From positions 1,292,773-1,356,772 of the forward strand of contig OZ252088.1 of NCBI GenBank assembly GCA_965248065.1: a DNA stretch of 64,000 nt. Reading direction: 5' to 3'. Of this stretch, positions 20,163-34,985 are shown one piece after another. How positions within the stretch are numbered: the stretch's first letter is position 1; each line of letters opens with the position of its first letter. Source of the stretch: Dehalococcoidia bacterium. GTDB taxonomy: Bacteria > Chloroflexota > Dehalococcoidia > Lucifugimonadales > Australimonadaceae. Both the position numbers and the translations under genes were made by a program. The notes under the pieces are model-generated. The model worked only from the letters and a program-made list of their open reading frames with translations, ran no database searches and was not told where the DNA came from.

Positions 20163-21186
20163 TGAATCCACAAACGAAGTGCAACACCAGATTAGGGTGT
20201 TGCCATGGAATACAGACAGCTCTGCATTGAGGAACGGTGTGAGATTGCCCGCTTACGCGCCAAGGGCTCCTCGGTCCGGCAAGTCGCTACAACTCTGGAT
20301 CGCGCGGCATCGACCGTGGCTCGGGAGCTGAAGCGGAACGCGCTGCGAACGGGCGGGTACCAAGCGTCGCCGGCCCAGGAGCGTGCCCGCGCGCGGCGCT
20401 GGACGGGGGCGCGGCTGGAACGGGACGAGGGGTTGCGGGAGCGGGTCTTGGCGGGCCTGAAGTGGGGGTGGTCGCCGGAGCAGGTCGCCCATGAGATGCG
20501 CAGAGAGGAGGGCCGGACGGTGACCTCGGACGAGAGCATCTACCGGTTCGTCTACGCCCAGGCCGCGCGGCACAAAGACCATGATTGGCGGCGCTACTTG
20601 CCGAGGGCGAAGTGGAAGCGGGGAAGGCGTGGCCGCAGGGGGGGAAGCTCGGTTTCCTTCATTCCCCTCCGCCGACCCGTTGCTGAGCGGCCTGCGGTGG
20701 CGGCCGACCGGCGGACCTTCGGGCACTGGGAGGCGGACACGATGCAGTTCGGGAGGTCGGGAGAGGTGGTGTTGGCCCTGCAGGAACGCTCCTCGCGCCT
20801 CTTGCTCCTCGCGCGTGCGCCGTCGAAGGAGGCGGGGCCGATCGCGGAGTCCATCGCCCGGATGCTGGGGCCGTTGCCGCCGGAGTTTCGCCAGACGGTG
20901 ACCTTCGACAATGGGACCGAGTTCACCCGTCACTACGAGCTCCACCGGTTGGGCATCGAGACGTTCTTCTGCGACACGTACTCGCCGTGGCAGAAGGGGG
21001 GAGTGGAGAACGCGATCGGCCGGCTGCGGCGGTTCCTGCCGCGGGGGACGAATCTGGGGGAGGTGTCGGATGAGCGGTTTGCGCTGATCGGGCAGGCGTA
21101 CAACAATACGCCGCGCAAGTGCCTGGGCTACCGGACACCGGCGGGGGTCGTCGAGGAGCAGGTGTTGCACTTCAAATGTGGATTCA
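20163..21186 (+). mobile_element. IS30-family insertion sequence, copy 1 (intact), 1024 bp
   Basis: IRL TGAATCCACAAACGAAGTGCAACAC and IRR GTGTTGCACTTCAAATGTGGATTCA (22/25 match). Near-identical copies at 24798-25822 and 39582-40606. Confidence 0.9.
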
Positions 21187-21209
21187 CCTTCCCGCCTGCG
21201 CGGGAATGA
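20205..21209 (+). CDS. IS30-family DDE transposase
   Basis: 334 aa. N-terminal HTH (CEIARLRAKGSSVRQVA), catalytic region GHWEADT ... DNGTEF ... PWQKGGVEN. The ORF runs through IRR and stops at the TGA inside the flanking REP (GGGAATGACGG). Confidence 0.95.
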   Translation: MEYRQLCIEERCEIARLRAKGSSVRQVATTLDRAASTVARELKRNALRTGGYQASPAQERARARRWTGARLERDEGLRERVLAGLKWGWSPEQVAHEMRREEGRTVTSDESIYRFVYAQAARHKDHDWRRYLPRAKWKRGRRGRRGGSSVSFIPLRRPVAERPAVAADRRTFGHWEADTMQFGRSGEVVLALQERSSRLLLLARAPSKEAGPIAESIARMLGPLPPEFRQTVTFDNGTEFTRHYELHRLGIETFFCDTYSPWQKGGVENAIGRLRRFLPRGTNLGEVSDERFALIGQAYNNTPRKCLGYRTPAGVVEEQVLHFKCGFTFPPARE

Positions 21210-24797: not shown

Positions 24798-25822
24798 TGA
24801 ATCCACAAACGAAGTGCAACACCAGATTAGGGTGTTGCCATGGAATACAGACAGCTCTGCATTGAGGAACGGTGTGAGATTGCCCGCTTACGCGCCAAGG
24901 GCTCCTCGGTCCGGCAAGTCGCTACAACTCTGGATCGCGCGGCATCGACCGTGGCTCGGGAGCTGAAGCGGAACGCACTGCGAACGGACGGGTACCAAGC
25001 GTCGCCGGCCCAGGAGCGTGCCCGCGCGCGGCGCTGGACGGGGGCGCGGCTGGAACGGGACGAGGAGTTGCGGGAGCGGGTCTTGGCGGGCCTGAAGTGG
25101 GGGTGGTCGCCGGAGCAGGTCGCCCATGAGATGCGCAGAGAGGAGGGCCGGACGGTGACCTCGGACGAGAGCATCTACCGGTTCGTCTACGCCCCAGGCC
25201 GCGCGGCACAAAGACCATGATTGGCGGCGCTACTTGCCGAGGGCGAAGTGGAAGCGGGGGAGGCGGGGCCGCAGGGGGGGAAGCTCGGTTTCCTTCATTC
25301 CCCTCCGCCGACCCGTTGCTGAGCGGCCTGCGGTGGCGGCCGACCGGCGGACCTTCGGGCACTGGGAGGCGGACACGATGCAGTTCGGGAGGTCGGGAGA
25401 GGTGGTGTTGGCCCTGCAGGAACGCTCCTCGCGCCTCTTGCTTCTCGCGCGTGCGCCGTCGAAGGAGGCGGGGCCGATCGCGGAGTCCATCGCCCGGATG
25501 CTGGGGCCGTTGCCGCCGGAGTTTCGCCAGACGGTGACCTTCGACAATGGGACCGAGTTCACCCGTCACTACGAGCTCCACCGGTTGGGCATCGAGACGT
25601 TCTTCTGCGACACGTACTCGCCGTGGCAGAAGGGGGGAGTGGAGAACGCGATCGGCCGGCTGCGGCGGTTCCTGCCGCGGGGGACGAATCTGGGGGAGGT
25701 GTCGGATGAGCGGTTTGCGCTGATCGGGCAGGCGTACAACAATACGCCGCGCAAGTGCCTGGGCTACCGGACACCGGCGGGGGTCGTCGAGGAGCAGGTG
25801 TTGCACTTCAAATGTGGATTCA
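24798..25822 (+). mobile_element. IS30-family insertion sequence, copy 2 (1025 bp)
   Basis: Same IRs and the same flanks (GGTTCCC | IS | CCTTCCCGCC...GGGAATGACGG) as copy 1. Confidence 0.9.
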
Positions 25823-25845
25823 CCTTCCCGCCTTCGCGGGAATGA
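24840..25845 (+). pseudogene. IS30 transposase, frameshifted (+1 C)
   Basis: Track ORFs 24840..25220 and 25234..25845. Copy 1 reads GTCTACGCCCAGGCC where this copy reads GTCTACGCCCCAGGCC (C4 at 25192-25195). Confidence 0.85.
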
Positions 25846-27948: not shown

Positions 27949-28217
27949 AGCGCGCCTATGGGGCGGCGCATGACAAGGCGCGCGACCCCGGGGGAGGATA
28001 CGTCATCCTAGCACCGGCCCACGCGAGAGCCAAGTTGCCGGGGCGGCCCGTTTGGCGCGATACAGGGACTGCCGGTGCGGAAATCGGCTGGTTCCGTCAC
28101 CCTAGGCGGCATGGTATGGGGCGTGGGCGTTCTGGTATCATTCGCCGAGTTGCAAAGGTCCGGCGGACAACCGGACTCTCACATGCCGACTCTCTCAAAA
28201 TATCGCGACTGAGGAAA

Positions 28218-28898
28218 ATGACTACCGGCGTCTCTTATAACTCAGACGAAGAACTCGTGAAGCGTCTCCAGGTCGTGCTCCGCCATTACGCGAGAGCGGG
28301 GGATGACGGAAGGCTGGGCGGCGACGGCGTGCGGGAGGTGCGGAGCATTGCCGCCACGCTCGCGGGGCGCATCTATGACGACCCCCAGAAGTGGGGCATC
28401 GCCGATATCCGAGAGGACTTCCGGGACGACGCGGCCGCCGACACGCTGGCGAAGCTGCTCTCTGGGGCCGCCGAGCTCACGGGTAGGCAGGTCGTATCCG
28501 AGTGGTTCAGCCGGGCGGTGGAATCGAGGTTCCGCCAGCTGTGGAGCATGTCGGAGCGCCAGGCCGAGGAGCGGGAAACCAAGGCCGAGGAAGGCGTCCC
28601 TGCGCCGGACCCGGCCTCGGGCGCAGACGATGCCGCCGTATTCGAGGAGAACGGGGAGCTTTGGCGCCGGTTCGAGTCCGAGTTCCCGCGCGACGCGTTC
28701 GTTCTGCGCCTTCGCTACATGCTGGGCCGCAGCGCGGCCGAGATGGCCGTGATGTTGGACGCGCCAGGCCCCCAAGCTATCGGAATCCGCATCAACCGGG
28801 GCCGCGAGCGGTTCAAGATGTTCTGTGAGCAGGCGGGCTTCGGACGTCGCGAGGTCGCAGGGATCATGGCGCGGATCGCGGAGGAGCAGGAATCGTGA
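28218..28898 (+). CDS. sigma-70 region-4-like (ECF-type HTH) domain protein
   Basis: Trimmed to ATG 28218 (GAGGA upstream). The C-terminus FVLRLRYMLGRSAAEMAVMLDAPGPQAIGIRINRGRERFKMF fits the sigma70_r4_2 pattern. No recognisable region 2. Its TGA stop overlaps the GTG start of the next gene (GTGA). Confidence 0.5.
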   Translation: MTTGVSYNSDEELVKRLQVVLRHYARAGDDGRLGGDGVREVRSIAATLAGRIYDDPQKWGIADIREDFRDDAAADTLAKLLSGAAELTGRQVVSEWFSRAVESRFRQLWSMSERQAEERETKAEEGVPAPDPASGADDAAVFEENGELWRRFESEFPRDAFVLRLRYMLGRSAAEMAVMLDAPGPQAIGIRINRGRERFKMFCEQAGFGRREVAGIMARIAEEQES

Positions 28899-30400
28899 CC
28901 GAGCAGCCCATGAGCTCGATTGTCGTCGGTCGGCAGGCGTGGGTGCGCTTCGCTATGGATGCGACCGAGCGCTGGCTGAGCGTCTCCGGCGGGCTACCGT
29001 CCGAGATGACGCGCTTTGCCGCCTACATGCGGGAGCTGCGCTACCGCTCACGCCTCTCGCTGTTGGACCTGGCGGGCGAGCTTCAGGTCTCCTATGAGGA
29101 CCTGGCGATGCTCGAGCAGGGCCTGCTTCGGCCCTCGGAAGTTTCGACGGCCACCTGGGTCCGCCTGATGCGCTTACTGGAGGGGCGGGACATCCTGACC
29201 GTGCACGTGCCCCCTCCGCAGGAGGCGGACGTTCTGGCCGCGGCCGATTCCGACGAGCTTTGGGCGGTGGGGGAGATTTCCGGTTCCCAGTCCGGCACGA
29301 GCATGCGCGGGGCGGGCATGCAGCCGTTCGGCATCGCGCGTATCAAGGTCATAGGGGTAGGCGGCGGCGGCTCGAACGCAGTCAACCGCATGTACCGGCA
29401 GCGGATTGCAGGAGTGGACTACTTCGCGGTCAATACCGACGCGCAGCACCTGATCCACCTAGACCTGCCGGAGAAGATCCGCATCGGGGACCGTCTGGCG
29501 CGCGGGCTGGGGGTCGGAGGCGACCCGAGGCTTGGCCGCGAGTCCGCGGAGGAGTCGCGCGAGGACCTGTACGACATACTGAACGGCACCGATATGGTCT
29601 TCATCGCCGCGGGCATGGGCGGGGGGACGGGCACGGGGGCCGCTCCCGTCGTGGCGGAGATTGCAAAAGAGGTAGGCGCGCTCACCATTGCGGTCGTTAC
29701 GAAGCCGTTCCAGTTCGAGGGGCGTCGGCGGGCGCAGCAGGCCGACATGGGCATAAGCGCTCTGCGCGGGAACGTGGACACGCTGATCCTCATCCCGAAC
29801 GATAGACTCAACGCGGTGTCCGACGAGCGGATGACCGCCGAGAACGCGTTCCGGATCGCGGACGACGTGCTCCGGCAAGGCGTGCAGTCGATCGCCGAGC
29901 TCGTCACGATTCCGGGCGAGATAAACCTGGACTTCGCGGACGTGAGGGCGGTCATGCTCGGGGCCGGACCGGCCTGGATGGCGATCGGGCACGGGCGGGG
30001 AACTCAGCGGGCGCAGGAAGCCGCGAAAGAGGCGATGGCCAGCCCGCTGCTCGACGCGCCTATCGAGGGCGCGACCCGCGTCCTCCTGAACATCACGGGC
30101 GGCTCGGACCTGACGCTGCAGGAGGTGCAGGAGGCGGCAGACTTCATCTCGCGGCTGGTGGACCCGAACGCCAACATCATCTTCGGTATGGTCAACGACC
30201 CGAAGATGGAGGACGAGGTCCGTGTGACGGTGATCGCCACGGGCCTGCCCGAAGGAGAGGATGTCCTCAGCAAGTCGCTCGAAGACATGCTCGATCAGTC
30301 ATTCGACGATGATGCGGCGCCTTTCGAAGACTCGGAGCCGACGGTGGAGGTGCCGGGGTTCCTTCGCAGGTTGGGCTTCGGCCGGCGTTCCGACCGATAG
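28895..30400 (+). CDS. ftsZ: cell-division GTPase FtsZ with ~140-aa N-terminal extension containing an XRE-type HTH
   Basis: FtsZ core from ~aa 145: IKVIGVGGGGSNAVNRM, AGMGGGTGTGAAPVVAEIAKE, NLDFADV. The extension (MRELRYRSRLSLLDLAGELQVSYEDLAMLEQG) is in frame, has no stop, and is GC3-rich and protein-like. Internal ATGs at 29303 and 29318 are alternative starts. Confidence 0.85.
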   Translation: MTEQPMSSIVVGRQAWVRFAMDATERWLSVSGGLPSEMTRFAAYMRELRYRSRLSLLDLAGELQVSYEDLAMLEQGLLRPSEVSTATWVRLMRLLEGRDILTVHVPPPQEADVLAAADSDELWAVGEISGSQSGTSMRGAGMQPFGIARIKVIGVGGGGSNAVNRMYRQRIAGVDYFAVNTDAQHLIHLDLPEKIRIGDRLARGLGVGGDPRLGRESAEESREDLYDILNGTDMVFIAAGMGGGTGTGAAPVVAEIAKEVGALTIAVVTKPFQFEGRRRAQQADMGISALRGNVDTLILIPNDRLNAVSDERMTAENAFRIADDVLRQGVQSIAELVTIPGEINLDFADVRAVMLGAGPAWMAIGHGRGTQRAQEAAKEAMASPLLDAPIEGATRVLLNITGGSDLTLQEVQEAADFISRLVDPNANIIFGMVNDPKMEDEVRVTVIATGLPEGEDVLSKSLEDMLDQSFDDDAAPFEDSEPTVEVPGFLRRLGFGRRSDR

Positions 30401-33334: not shown

Positions 33335-34024
33335 CTAGGGATGGTTGGGTCCCTCCCCTAGGAGCGCGAGGATTCTGTTTTGTAACTGCTCACGCAGTTG
33401 GCTGGTGTCACTCCAGATTATGTGGGGATAGTGGTCGGTGTCGAATGCCAAGGTCGAGCCTTCGCGGCACAAATAGATCACAGGTATGCCTAAGCCGTGG
33501 GCGAAACCCGCCTCATAATAGACGCTTCCGCGCACCCCATCGCCGCCATGTGAAAAATCCGCTATCACAAAACGGGACCTGCGGATCTCGGCAATAATCT
33601 CATCGTCTATCTTACCAAGGAAATTCTTCTTGTCTATTCGCACCGGAGTGTAGCCGGTATCCTCGATAGCAGGTCTGATGCCATTCTCATAAGAATTGTT
33701 CATCGTATCATCGAACCACATGGCGACGAATGCTTGGGAAGTACTGAGATTGGTGTGTCGAGTTTCAAGATGGCGGTATCCGTTAGCGGTTACACGGAAT
33801 GTCTCTTGCGGTGCTGTCCACTGTATCAGTTCGCTATTGGACAAGTGTTCCAATAGTAAATAGATACGTTGCTGTGATATAACACTTAGCGATGAGTCCT
33901 TTGCTATTCTCGGAAGTAGTAAGTGTGTCTTTACATACGAACCTTCCGCATAATTCTCTGAGACAAATTGCAGCAGACGATTCGCTTGCTCATCTATGGG
34001 TAGCGCTTTAGGATTGTTGTTCAT
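33335..34024 (-). CDS. wHTH + nucleoside 2-deoxyribosyltransferase/TIR-like (Rossmannoid) domain protein, low-GC island gene 3
   Basis: Trimmed to ATG 34022-34024 (AAGGAG 9 nt upstream). The N-terminal ~90 aa are winged-helix-like. The C-terminal FVAMWFDD...DDEIIAEIRRSRFVIADFS...GSVYYEAGFAHGLGIPVIYL matches the D/E...YxEhGhAxGhGhPV pattern of NDT/TIR-like folds (pattern recognition only). Confidence 0.6.
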   Translation of the reverse strand: MNNNPKALPIDEQANRLLQFVSENYAEGSYVKTHLLLPRIAKDSSLSVISQQRIYLLLEHLSNSELIQWTAPQETFRVTANGYRHLETRHTNLSTSQAFVAMWFDDTMNNSYENGIRPAIEDTGYTPVRIDKKNFLGKIDDEIIAEIRRSRFVIADFSHGGDGVRGSVYYEAGFAHGLGIPVIYLCREGSTLAFDTDHYPHIIWSDTSQLREQLQNRILALLGEGPNHP

Positions 34025-34144
34025 TTGGAGTTTTCTCCTTACGGTATACTTATCCACTGTATGATTGCGGCTAGCTGGGCAACGTTTAGTGAGTGGATTC
34101 TTGACCGGAGTCTGCATCTCCCGTCTGACTAGATGGACTAGATG

Positions 34145-34630
34145 TTACTCGACGTTCAGTAACGCGGTCTTTGCTGCATTCGTCGAAATTAGCCCCGTTG
34201 CCCACCTTTCATAAATATCCATTACATCCTTTGTTTTGTCATCATCTGCGTACTGGTATGCATTCTGAATACCCGATTCAAGGTTATTGAATGCAGGTTC
34301 AGGAATTATCCATGTGACCCACTGGCGTTCATTGCATGAAAGAGTCACGAAGTAATCGCGGGGTTCACCAGAATCTCCTCCGATGTCGATTCTTCGTATT
34401 AAACCGACTTTCATGCTGACTTCTTCGCGACCACAAACTTGCACGAAGAAGTTGGCTAGGCTTCCTGGAGTATCACAGGCGATTGCAAGCTCATCATCAC
34501 ATGTACTAGTTCCACTGCTGTCCGAGATAAAAGGATACACGGATTGAACGAAAACCAATCCAAATAAGAGAAGGGCCCCTGCTATGGTCCCTAGAATGGA
34601 TAATAGCTTCTTGGGTACTGTCTCAGTCAT
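34145..34630 (-). CDS. N-terminally membrane-anchored protein of unknown function, low-GC island gene 2
   Basis: 161 aa. TM LLSILGTIAGALLLFGLVFV, then a Cys-containing soluble domain. AT-rich codon usage unlike the flanks. 8-nt overlap with gene 1. Confidence 0.6.
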   Translation of the reverse strand: MTETVPKKLLSILGTIAGALLLFGLVFVQSVYPFISDSSGTSTCDDELAIACDTPGSLANFFVQVCGREEVSMKVGLIRRIDIGGDSGEPRDYFVTLSCNERQWVTWIIPEPAFNNLESGIQNAYQYADDDKTKDVMDIYERWATGLISTNAAKTALLNVE

Positions 34631-34919
34631 GGTTGCTCTTCTCTGTCGCCGCTTTGATTATGCCGACCATAGCCGCGCCGAGAGCAAGGAGCCAAATCAC
34701 TATGCCGCCGATGAAGCCGATGAGCAGAAATATCTCGCAAATTCGGAACGCCGCGCCTATGGGCCAGATACCCCAGTTATAGAACTGTTCAGACGCATAG
34801 CTAACAATAACCAATGGCACTACCGCTATGAGCAACGCACAGAACCCGAACGCAAGGATTGCGCCGATGCCGAGAGACCCTTGCAAGATACCGAGGAAAG
34901 TGCGCTTACCTCTCTCCAT
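34623..34919 (-). CDS. small integral membrane protein (3 predicted TM helices), low-GC island gene 1
   Basis: 98 aa. Three long hydrophobic segments. AT-rich codons. First gene of the minus-strand triad. Confidence 0.6.
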   Translation of the reverse strand: MERGKRTFLGILQGSLGIGAILAFGFCALLIAVVPLVIVSYASEQFYNWGIWPIGAAFRICEIFLLIGFIGGIVIWLLALGAAMVGIIKAATEKSNHD

Positions 34920-34985
34920 AGGGGACCACCTGCGGGACGTTGTTGGTTGGTGTGGACACTAGCGCGTACCTGCAATCCCCAAGTG

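Follow-up and report, generated by a model that had tools for sequence, protein, structure and literature searches.

The locus encodes an FtsZ with an N-terminal extension

The DNA analyzed in this study (the window) is a stretch of 64,000 nucleotides from a Dehalococcoidia bacterium (assembly GCA_965248065.1, contig OZ252088.1, positions 1,292,773 to 1,356,772 of the forward strand). It carries a pair of overlapping genes, a sigma-like gene (28218–28898; 226 aa, of a divergent extracytoplasmic function (ECF) type) and an ftsZ gene with a GTG start codon (28895–30400; 501 aa). All features of this locus described below are on the forward strand, and their positions are those of the window. We use the name FtsZ2 for this second FtsZ, which bears a helix-turn-helix (HTH), and the name FtsZ1 for the canonical FtsZ of the same lineages. 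From the N- to the C-terminus, FtsZ2 comprises an XRE-type HTH domain of ~100 aa with an extra N-terminal helix (hereafter the N-domain), a variable acidic linker, and a complete FtsZ. The genes flanking the pair are a divergent pccB-type carboxyltransferase gene and a gene for a GSDH-family dehydrogenase.

The FtsZ GTPase and C-terminal domains occupy aa 147–452 (29333–30250). They were matched by Pfam Tubulin (aa 149–309, E = 1.5e-46, 159.5 bits against a cut-off of 33), Pfam FtsZ_C (aa 358–451, E = 7e-32, 110 bits against a cut-off of 27), and the NCBIfam equivalog TIGR00065 for ftsZ (416.6 bits against a cut-off of 295). The sequence IKVIGVGGGGSNAVNRM begins at aa 150, and the GGGTGTG signature is also present, in agreement with a first-pass annotation of the window that had placed the FtsZ core near aa 145. 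The T7 synergy loop (N-x-D-x-x-D) was kept as NLDFADV. The rest of the protein, read from the sequence and the ortholog alignment, is a C-terminal variable linker and a conserved C-terminal peptide followed by the stop codon (30251–30400). This peptide, VPGFLRRL, lies at aa 486–493 (30350–30373), and its residues P487, F489, L490, and R492 were invariant across the aligned orthologues. With every feature that defines the family at the sequence level, FtsZ2 belongs to the FtsZ family, and it is apparently polymerization-competent, with a C-terminal peptide of the kind that binds a membrane anchor. A distant FtsZ2 (P0171) ends in a Trp/Lys/Arg-rich tail (AWLKKVWTRARSW) in place of the P-x-F-L-R peptide, and this tail may act as a direct membrane-targeting helix.

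The extension is coding and conserved

About 146 codons before the FtsZ core were open in frame. The GC content at third codon positions (GC3) was 0.87 in the N-domain, linker, and core alike, compared with 0.69 and 0.50 in the other two frames. Against two relatives, the ratios of nonsynonymous to synonymous substitution rates (dN/dS) were 0.15–0.16 for the N-domain, 0.27–0.81 for the linker, 0.06–0.10 for the FtsZ core, and 0.22–0.31 for the sigma-like gene. These values bear out the earlier remark that the frame is open and GC3-rich for another ~140 codons upstream of the core.

Relatives were aligned, as the first-pass annotation had advised. A search with the full-length protein recovered ~97 protein clusters (90% identity) of 467–549-aa FtsZ proteins that share the N-domain and its opening, ...W-[VL]-R-F-A...E-R-W.... 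Their sources were labeled as Dehalococcoidia, Chloroflexota, or 'SAR202 cluster' metagenome-assembled genomes (MAGs), and Tara Oceans sequences were included. A single member, from a truncated record, carried a Planctomycetota label. A word-index search with the extension alone returned three partial proteins and badly underestimated the family, which was revealed by the full-length and sigma-like queries.

It had been considered beforehand that close relatives might lack the extension, or that a sequencing error might hide a frameshift within it. Neither was borne out. The extension was conserved down to 40% identity, and relatives keep it under purifying selection. Even in proteins with as little as 55% identity, insertions and deletions in the linker preserved the reading frame, which speaks against a hidden frameshift. 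The internal Met codons were not conserved, and several relatives have GRGIQPFGVAR at this place, making translation from an internal ATG unlikely.

The NCBI pipeline often calls FtsZ2 short, at 353–410 aa, from an internal Met (several MAGs, and the clusters of P0081, P0083, P0117, and P0169), and the family is therefore largely hidden in public databases. At one relative's locus (L011, 5569–6001), the stretch from the sigma-like gene to the called start held the 143 'missing' codons, intact and in frame. Three short close relatives gave no evidence of extension loss: P0164 and P0166 are contig-end fragments beginning at an internal Met, and P0169 is a start-site miscall.

The N-domain has an XRE-type HTH fold

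The N-domain covers aa 1–100 (28895–29194), as delimited by an AlphaFold2 (AF2) model, Foldseek, and the family alignment. The AF2 model, built from a 53-sequence alignment, was confident (predicted local distance difference test score, pLDDT, 84) and contained helices at aa 13–29, 36–52, 56–63, 67–74, and 85–95, the last four of which form the XRE-type HTH. The extra first helix (aa 13–29) holds W16, R18, R26, and W27. Foldseek matches in the PDB included C.AhdI, ClgR, C.BclI, HipB, and DdrO, and also RodZ, with probabilities of 0.96–1.0. The root-mean-square deviation from C.AhdI, ClgR, C.BclI, and HipB was 1.7–2.3 Å over ~60 residues, with TMt up to 0.76. Profile-to-PDB sequence matches were to DdrO, SinR, and the chlamydial RodZ homologue CT009. 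HTH_31 matched aa 40–96 of the window protein with E = 8e-5 and 23.5 bits, below the Pfam cut-off of 27. Among 53 family members, 32 matched HTH_31 (E < 0.01, best 1.8e-7) and 17 matched HTH_25, the RodZ type. By its predicted fold, the N-domain is an XRE-type (Cro/C1) HTH, as had been suspected from the look of the extension.

The N-domain is ~102 aa long across the family, and W16, R26, R49, E74, G76, P80, S81, and W88 were invariant among the 53 diverse members. A profile search against 1.84 billion representatives found no whole N-domain with the extra helix outside FtsZ2. Complete-domain matches were FtsZ2 proteins, their fragments, or frameshift artefacts, and the remaining matches were generic HTH repeats at profile positions ~36–85. 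The N-domain is therefore specific to FtsZ2 and has no free-standing form.

The recognition helix has the consensus P-Y-E-[QHD]-L-A-L-L-E-Q-G. Glu68 was present in 51 of the 53 members, and Leu/Met take the positions where polar residues that contact bases are the norm. The mean charge of the N-domain was −0.9, that is, slightly acidic, and helix 85–95 (W-V-R-L-M-R-L-L-E-G-R-E) was nearly invariant. Judged from these sequences, the surface of the N-domain resembles a protein interface more closely than one that binds an operator.

The linker (aa 101–146, 29195–29332) is acidic and rich in Ala, Pro, Glu, Ser, and Asp. Across the family it is 25–85 aa long with in-frame length changes and a mean net charge of −5.8, and it is probably disordered. 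It contains the linear motif DSDELWAV (aa 118–125, 29246–29269). The form D-x-[DE]-[EDQ]-x-W was found in 38 of the 97 family linkers, amid otherwise unconserved sequence, and is probably a binding peptide.

A divergent ECF-type sigma factor gene precedes ftsZ2

The sigma-like protein consists of a sigma-2-like domain (~aa 9–112), a long variable acidic linker, and a sigma-4-like domain (~aa 140–205). The RxxRxR recognition helix of the latter reads RINRGRE in the window and RLNRARD in the family consensus, and R191, R194, and R198 of this sigma-4.2 helix were invariant. There were 69 homologues, each of ~225 aa.

The AF2 model of the protein had a pLDDT of 82, and its top 18 Foldseek matches in the PDB were all ECF sigma factors (AlgU, sigma-E, SigH, SigW, and CnrH among them; probability 0.99–1.0). 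Searched separately, region 2 reached TMt 0.79 (4lup) and region 4 reached TMt 0.68 (2h27). The sequence matches were weak: Sigma70_r4_2 had an E-value of 0.1 and 12.7 bits against a cut-off of 25.7, PRK12515 had an E-value of 0.002, and the best NCBIfam match scored 17.7 bits against 236, so that all curated thresholds were missed. A profile alignment to E. coli sigma-E (PDB) spanned regions 2.2–4.2 at an E-value of only 0.23, and in it ...EMAVMLDAP...RLNRARD, ending with the 4.2 recognition helix, was aligned with ...EIAAIMDCP...RIFRARE. On the basis of the modeled fold, the upstream protein is a two-domain ECF-type sigma factor that is highly divergent in sequence, which upholds the sigma-like character first read from its C-terminus, and it probably functions as a sigma factor.

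A 427-aa protein (P0247) that looked like a 'Rosetta stone' fusion of the sigma-like protein and FtsZ2 was rejected as a frameshift artefact: its sigma-4 region runs, out of frame, into the ftsZ2 frame that overlaps it.

The sigma-like gene and ftsZ2 form a conserved operon

The GTG start codon of ftsZ2 (28895–28897) overlaps the TGA stop codon of the sigma-like gene (28896–28898) as GTGA, just as the first-pass annotation had described. A Shine-Dalgarno-like GGAGGAG (28880–28886) lies 8 nt before this GTG, within the end of the sigma-like gene. Most loci have such a stop/start overlap, of 4 nt (as in L005–L007) or of 1 nt (as in L009 and L010). The sigma-like gene was directly upstream of the HTH-FtsZ gene in all 15 distinct loci inspected (the window, L001–L007, L009–L011, L016, L018, L020, and L021), which ranged from 40 to 100% identity. 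The outer neighbors varied: most loci have pccB, L004 has a succinate-dehydrogenase-type flavoprotein, L016 an aldo-keto reductase, and L018 a Rieske protein. The genes downstream of the pair varied as well. Contigs of identical size in both hit lists suggested ~15 further pairs. The sigma-like gene and ftsZ2 are a conserved two-gene module of SAR202-type Dehalococcoidia.

The element TTCTGGTATCAT (28130–28141), which contains the extended −10-like TGnTATCAT, lies 76 nt upstream of the sigma-like start codon. The form TTCTG[GC]TA[TC][CA]AT was kept in nine of ten aligned upstream regions, 70–95 nt ahead of the start codon, and the rest of these regions was unconserved. The promoter region of the divergent neighbor has a similar TGnTAnnnT form. 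This element is the probable housekeeping-type extended −10 promoter of the operon; a consensus promoter scan missed it because it has no good −35 hexamer. The aligned upstream regions showed no conserved palindromic operator close to the operon.

A GC-rich inverted repeat, GTCCGG-N7-CCGGAC (28158–28176), was read from the sequence of the putative 5' untranslated region. GC-rich hairpins of other sequence were found at about the same place in L001, L003, L004, L009, L010, and L016. The hairpin sequence thus differs by lineage, and the structure may therefore be conserved without sequence conservation. An Rfam scan of the locus, including this hairpin, gave no match.

FtsZ2 coexists with a canonical FtsZ1 in relatives

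The nearest FtsZ proteins without the extension were 358–392 aa long, had cores 62–81% identical, and were encoded in mraZ-rsmH-ftsA-ftsZ or mraZ-rsmH-ftsZ clusters. The core of the window FtsZ2 was 68% identical to the canonical FtsZ1 of relatives. A check for a second ftsZ, also advised in the first-pass annotation, found one in two relatives. The 136.6-kb JGI contig 3300010883|Ga0133547_10000272 bears both gene sets ~16 kb apart, with the sigma-like/HTH-FtsZ pair at ~106–108 kb and mraZ-rsmH-ftsZ (373 aa) at ~124–125 kb. In the MAG GCA_036448115.1, the pair is on contig 512 and rsmH-ftsA-ftsZ (361 aa) is on contig 387. The FtsZ1 and FtsZ2 cores split cleanly in a neighbor-joining tree, which was unrooted and included a limited canonical set. 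Because the HTH-bearing FtsZ coexists with a canonical ftsZ in relatives, FtsZ2 is, judged from them, a second FtsZ paralogue and not a relocated division FtsZ. The duplication appears to be lineage-specific within Dehalococcoidia.

By tblastn, no ftsA, mraZ, rsmH, or second ftsZ was found anywhere within the window. The earlier statement that the gene lies outside any division and cell wall (dcw) context was thus true of the locus, but the relocated division FtsZ that it implied was not supported, since relatives hold a separate dcw ftsZ. Being a paralogue explains the location of ftsZ2 outside dcw, and FtsZ1 is expected elsewhere in the source genome. Consistent with this expectation, mraZ, mraW, ftsA, and ftsZ were adjacent in all high-quality Dehalococcoidales and SAR202 genomes surveyed previously (PMC10608941). 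These groups were reported to have neither the other dcw genes nor a peptidoglycan wall (PMC10608941; also PMC11994032).

In the canonical clusters inspected here, ftsA was missing from L013–L015 (mraZ-rsmH-ftsZ) and present in L012 and L019. L012–L015 also have, ~3 kb upstream of mraZ and on the other strand, a conventional ECF sigma gene; it was followed by a DUF5667 gene in L013–L015, and the locus ends there in L012.

The synonymous divergence (dS) between the window and L020 was 0.32 for the FtsZ2 core (29333–30250), about half of that for the N-domain (0.75) and the sigma-like gene (0.63). Such a low value could reflect gene conversion with the FtsZ1 paralogue or a strong constraint on codons.

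Other features of the window

An islet at 33335–34950 had a low GC content of 46–52%, compared with ~66% around it. Its open reading frame (ORF) at 33338–34117 on the minus strand (260 aa) matched a TIR effector model of PADLOC (E = 2e-13) and had no Pfam match. In L020, the same slot, between the DUF3179 and hydantoinase B genes, holds a 208-aa gene and a gene for a ParA/CbiA-like ATPase instead. The islet looks like a horizontally acquired defense-type insertion. The window also contains two IS30-family transposase genes (HTH_38 + rve). The copy at 20205–21209 is intact (334 aa), and the second copy, at 24840–25845, is split by a frameshift into ORFs of 126 aa and 203 aa.

Comparison with known systems

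FtsZ2 shares with canonical FtsZ the full GTPase and C-terminal domains, the GGGTGTG signature, the T7 loop, and the P-x-F-L-R peptide, and the canonical FtsZ1 paralogues end in LPPFLR, similar to VPGFLRRL of FtsZ2. It differs in the added 100-aa HTH domain and acidic tether, in its location outside the dcw remnant, and in the sigma-like gene that always precedes it. Haloarchaea are known to have an FtsZ1/FtsZ2 pair in one cell, and the host lineages of the FtsZ2 described here are likewise reported to be without a peptidoglycan wall. Two FtsZ paralogues per cell are also found in the chloroplast and cyanobacterial lineage (FtsZ1/FtsZ2; PMC3494859). However, no paralogue in these dual-FtsZ systems is known to have an HTH domain or to be coupled to a sigma gene.

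In the operons of ECF sigma and anti-sigma factors (sigma-E/RseA, AlgU/MucA, SigW/RsiW, and CnrH/CnrY), a gene for a two-domain sigma factor is followed by a translationally coupled gene, as at the FtsZ2 locus. Like an anti-sigma factor, FtsZ2 begins with a small helical domain of ~100 aa, which a linker connects to a C-terminal module of another kind. Unlike in these operons, the sigma-like protein falls below the curated thresholds, the N-domain is of the XRE type and not an anti-sigma domain, and FtsZ2 has no transmembrane segment and carries a cytoskeletal polymer as its C-terminal module.

RodZ, an XRE/HTH_25 protein that binds MreB (PDB 2wus), is another case of an XRE-type HTH linked to a bacterial cytoskeletal protein. 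However, RodZ is a membrane protein in its own right and has a transmembrane helix and DUF4115, neither of which was found in FtsZ2, whereas the HTH of FtsZ2 has an extra helix and is fused to the tubulin homologue itself. The TubR-TubZ type III partition system resembles FtsZ2 in that an HTH protein acts with a filament of the tubulin/FtsZ superfamily. TubZ belongs to a distant family, whereas the FtsZ2 core is a bona fide FtsZ (Tubulin_2 matched at an E-value of only 0.036); TubR is a separate winged-helix protein; and no centromere-like repeats were seen at the FtsZ2 locus. A conceptual precedent for tying sigma activation to the division ring is SpoIIE-FtsZ-sigma-F in Bacillus sporulation. 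There the link runs indirectly, by way of a phosphatase and a partner-switching cascade, and its components have no homology to the parts of the FtsZ2 module.

Possible roles of FtsZ2

We tentatively propose that the sigma factor docks onto FtsZ2, so that where it is or how available it is depends on the division cytoskeleton, a prediction to which we give somewhat less than an even chance. The HTH domain would serve to dock a protein, namely the co-translated sigma-like one, and not to bind an operator in the classical way. The sigma factor would be held on the division cytoskeleton by FtsZ2, or freed from there, which is an anti-sigma role in which the FtsZ polymer replaces the usual 'sensor' domain. 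The transcription that this sigma factor directs would then follow the state of assembly, or the position, of the division ring. Among candidate partners, only the sigma-like gene is invariant, and it is placed relative to the N-domain as a sigma gene is placed relative to an anti-sigma gene; the translationally coupled slot right after an ECF sigma gene is the usual place of anti-sigma genes. By analogy, the precedent of RodZ shows that an XRE-type HTH can be a cytoskeleton-binding module. Osawa and Erickson reportedly found in 2011 that the N-terminus of FtsZ and its membrane-directed C-terminal tail are on opposite faces of the protofilament, and a domain tethered to the N-terminus should therefore project into the cytoplasm.

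Several observations weigh against sigma docking. Most XRE domains bind DNA, and the N-domain has kept residues typical of phosphate contacts (R46, R49, and K/R79). It has no HxxxCxxC or other Cys/His motif, and its XRE fold matches neither known class of anti-sigma domain. The gene overlap is not universal, with a gap of ~34 nt in L016, and no ECF-type autoregulated promoter was found upstream of the operon, where the conserved block looks housekeeping. In a mirror-tree analysis with partial Mantel tests (24 pairs), the partial correlation of sigma with the N-domain given the core was 0.52, and that of sigma with the core given the N-domain was 0.60, so that the N-domain was not singled out; because all partial correlations were significant and of similar size, this analysis cannot separate the explanations.

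In a more specific form, sigma docking would make FtsZ2 a cytoskeletal anti-sigma factor. Its docking domains would sequester the sigma factor on filaments at the division site, and the assembly, disassembly, or turnover of the polymer would release it. We consider this version somewhat unlikely.

The main rival to sigma docking is a DNA-tethered FtsZ. The XRE domain would bind the chromosome and link FtsZ2 filaments to the nucleoid, for example in positioning the ring, and the sigma factor would merely co-regulate expression. The outcome would be analogous to the MatP-ZapB-ZapA linkage to Ter, to nucleoid occlusion by SlmA or Noc, and to TubR-TubZ. The best fold and sequence matches of the N-domain are DNA-binding XRE regulators (C.AhdI, ClgR, HipB, DdrO, and SinR), an E-x-G-x3-P-S signature is conserved together with the basic residues named above, and a long flexible tether on what is said to be the cytoplasm-facing end of FtsZ would suit nucleoid reach. 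On the other hand, the recognition helix has an acidic and hydrophobic character, the domain is slightly acidic on average, the sole conserved upstream block is promoter-like with no conserved palindromic operator near the operon, and DNA tethering leaves unexplained why the sigma-like gene is the only invariant neighbor. On balance, we regard DNA tethering as unlikely.

Alternatively, the HTH could be a RodZ-like or self-association module that binds FtsA, FtsZ1, or FtsZ2, or that dimerizes, and thereby cross-links or modulates filaments, with the sigma-like gene being a separate matter. HTH_25 matched 17 of the 53 members, RodZ-MreB (2wus) and CT009 were among the matches, the near-invariant helix 85–95 is what would be expected of a protein interface, and the linker motif D-x-D-E-L-W-A could be an intramolecular or partner-binding peptide. 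However, at least one FtsZ2 genome (L013) has no ftsA in its canonical cluster, nothing points to any particular partner, and the strict linkage to the sigma-like gene is left unexplained. We therefore judge such a module to be improbable.

The window gene could also be the sole, relocated division FtsZ of the source genome, the HTH then modifying the primary divisome. This would agree with a wholly canonical core and with the lack of a second ftsZ, ftsA, mraZ, and rsmH within the window. Its chances are slim, as both genes are present in two relatives, mraZ-mraW-ftsA-ftsZ are adjacent in all surveyed genomes (PMC10608941), and the window covers 64 kb of a contig of ~3.17 Mb. Finally, an annotation artefact, in which translation really begins at the internal ATG at 29303 or 29318 and the open frame before it is no part of FtsZ, would fit the short NCBI calls of 353–410 aa and the internal Met codons of the window, but is very unlikely and close to negligible because the extension is under selection (dN/dS 0.15) with GC3 equal to that of the core, the N-domain is kept to 40% identity with in-frame linker indels, the internal Met is missing in many relatives, a Shine-Dalgarno sequence and start codon are found at the homologous MT... 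position, and the extension in L011 is intact and in frame upstream of the called start.

Significance of the FtsZ2 module

FtsZ is among the most studied bacterial proteins, and to our knowledge the known bacterial FtsZ variants differ mainly by linker length or tail loss. In the literature, we found no description of an HTH-FtsZ architecture, in line with the first-pass annotation, or of FtsZ paralogues in Chloroflexota. The architecture is likely to surprise specialists in cell division. FtsZ2 and its partner gene are a widespread, previously overlooked FtsZ paralogue module. A widespread, strongly conserved paralogue with a folded HTH domain on its cytoplasm-facing end would newly wire the division cytoskeleton to gene expression or to DNA, and its obligate pairing with a sigma-factor gene makes it more notable still.

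SAR202-type Dehalococcoidia are only starting to be cultured (PMC10444878), and the FtsZ2 module provides a testable handle on division in these bacteria, which reportedly have no peptidoglycan wall. If FtsZ2 were indeed a cytoskeletal anti-sigma factor, it would switch a transcription program directly, through a single protein, according to the state of the division ring, in bacteria that are among the most abundant of the dark ocean.

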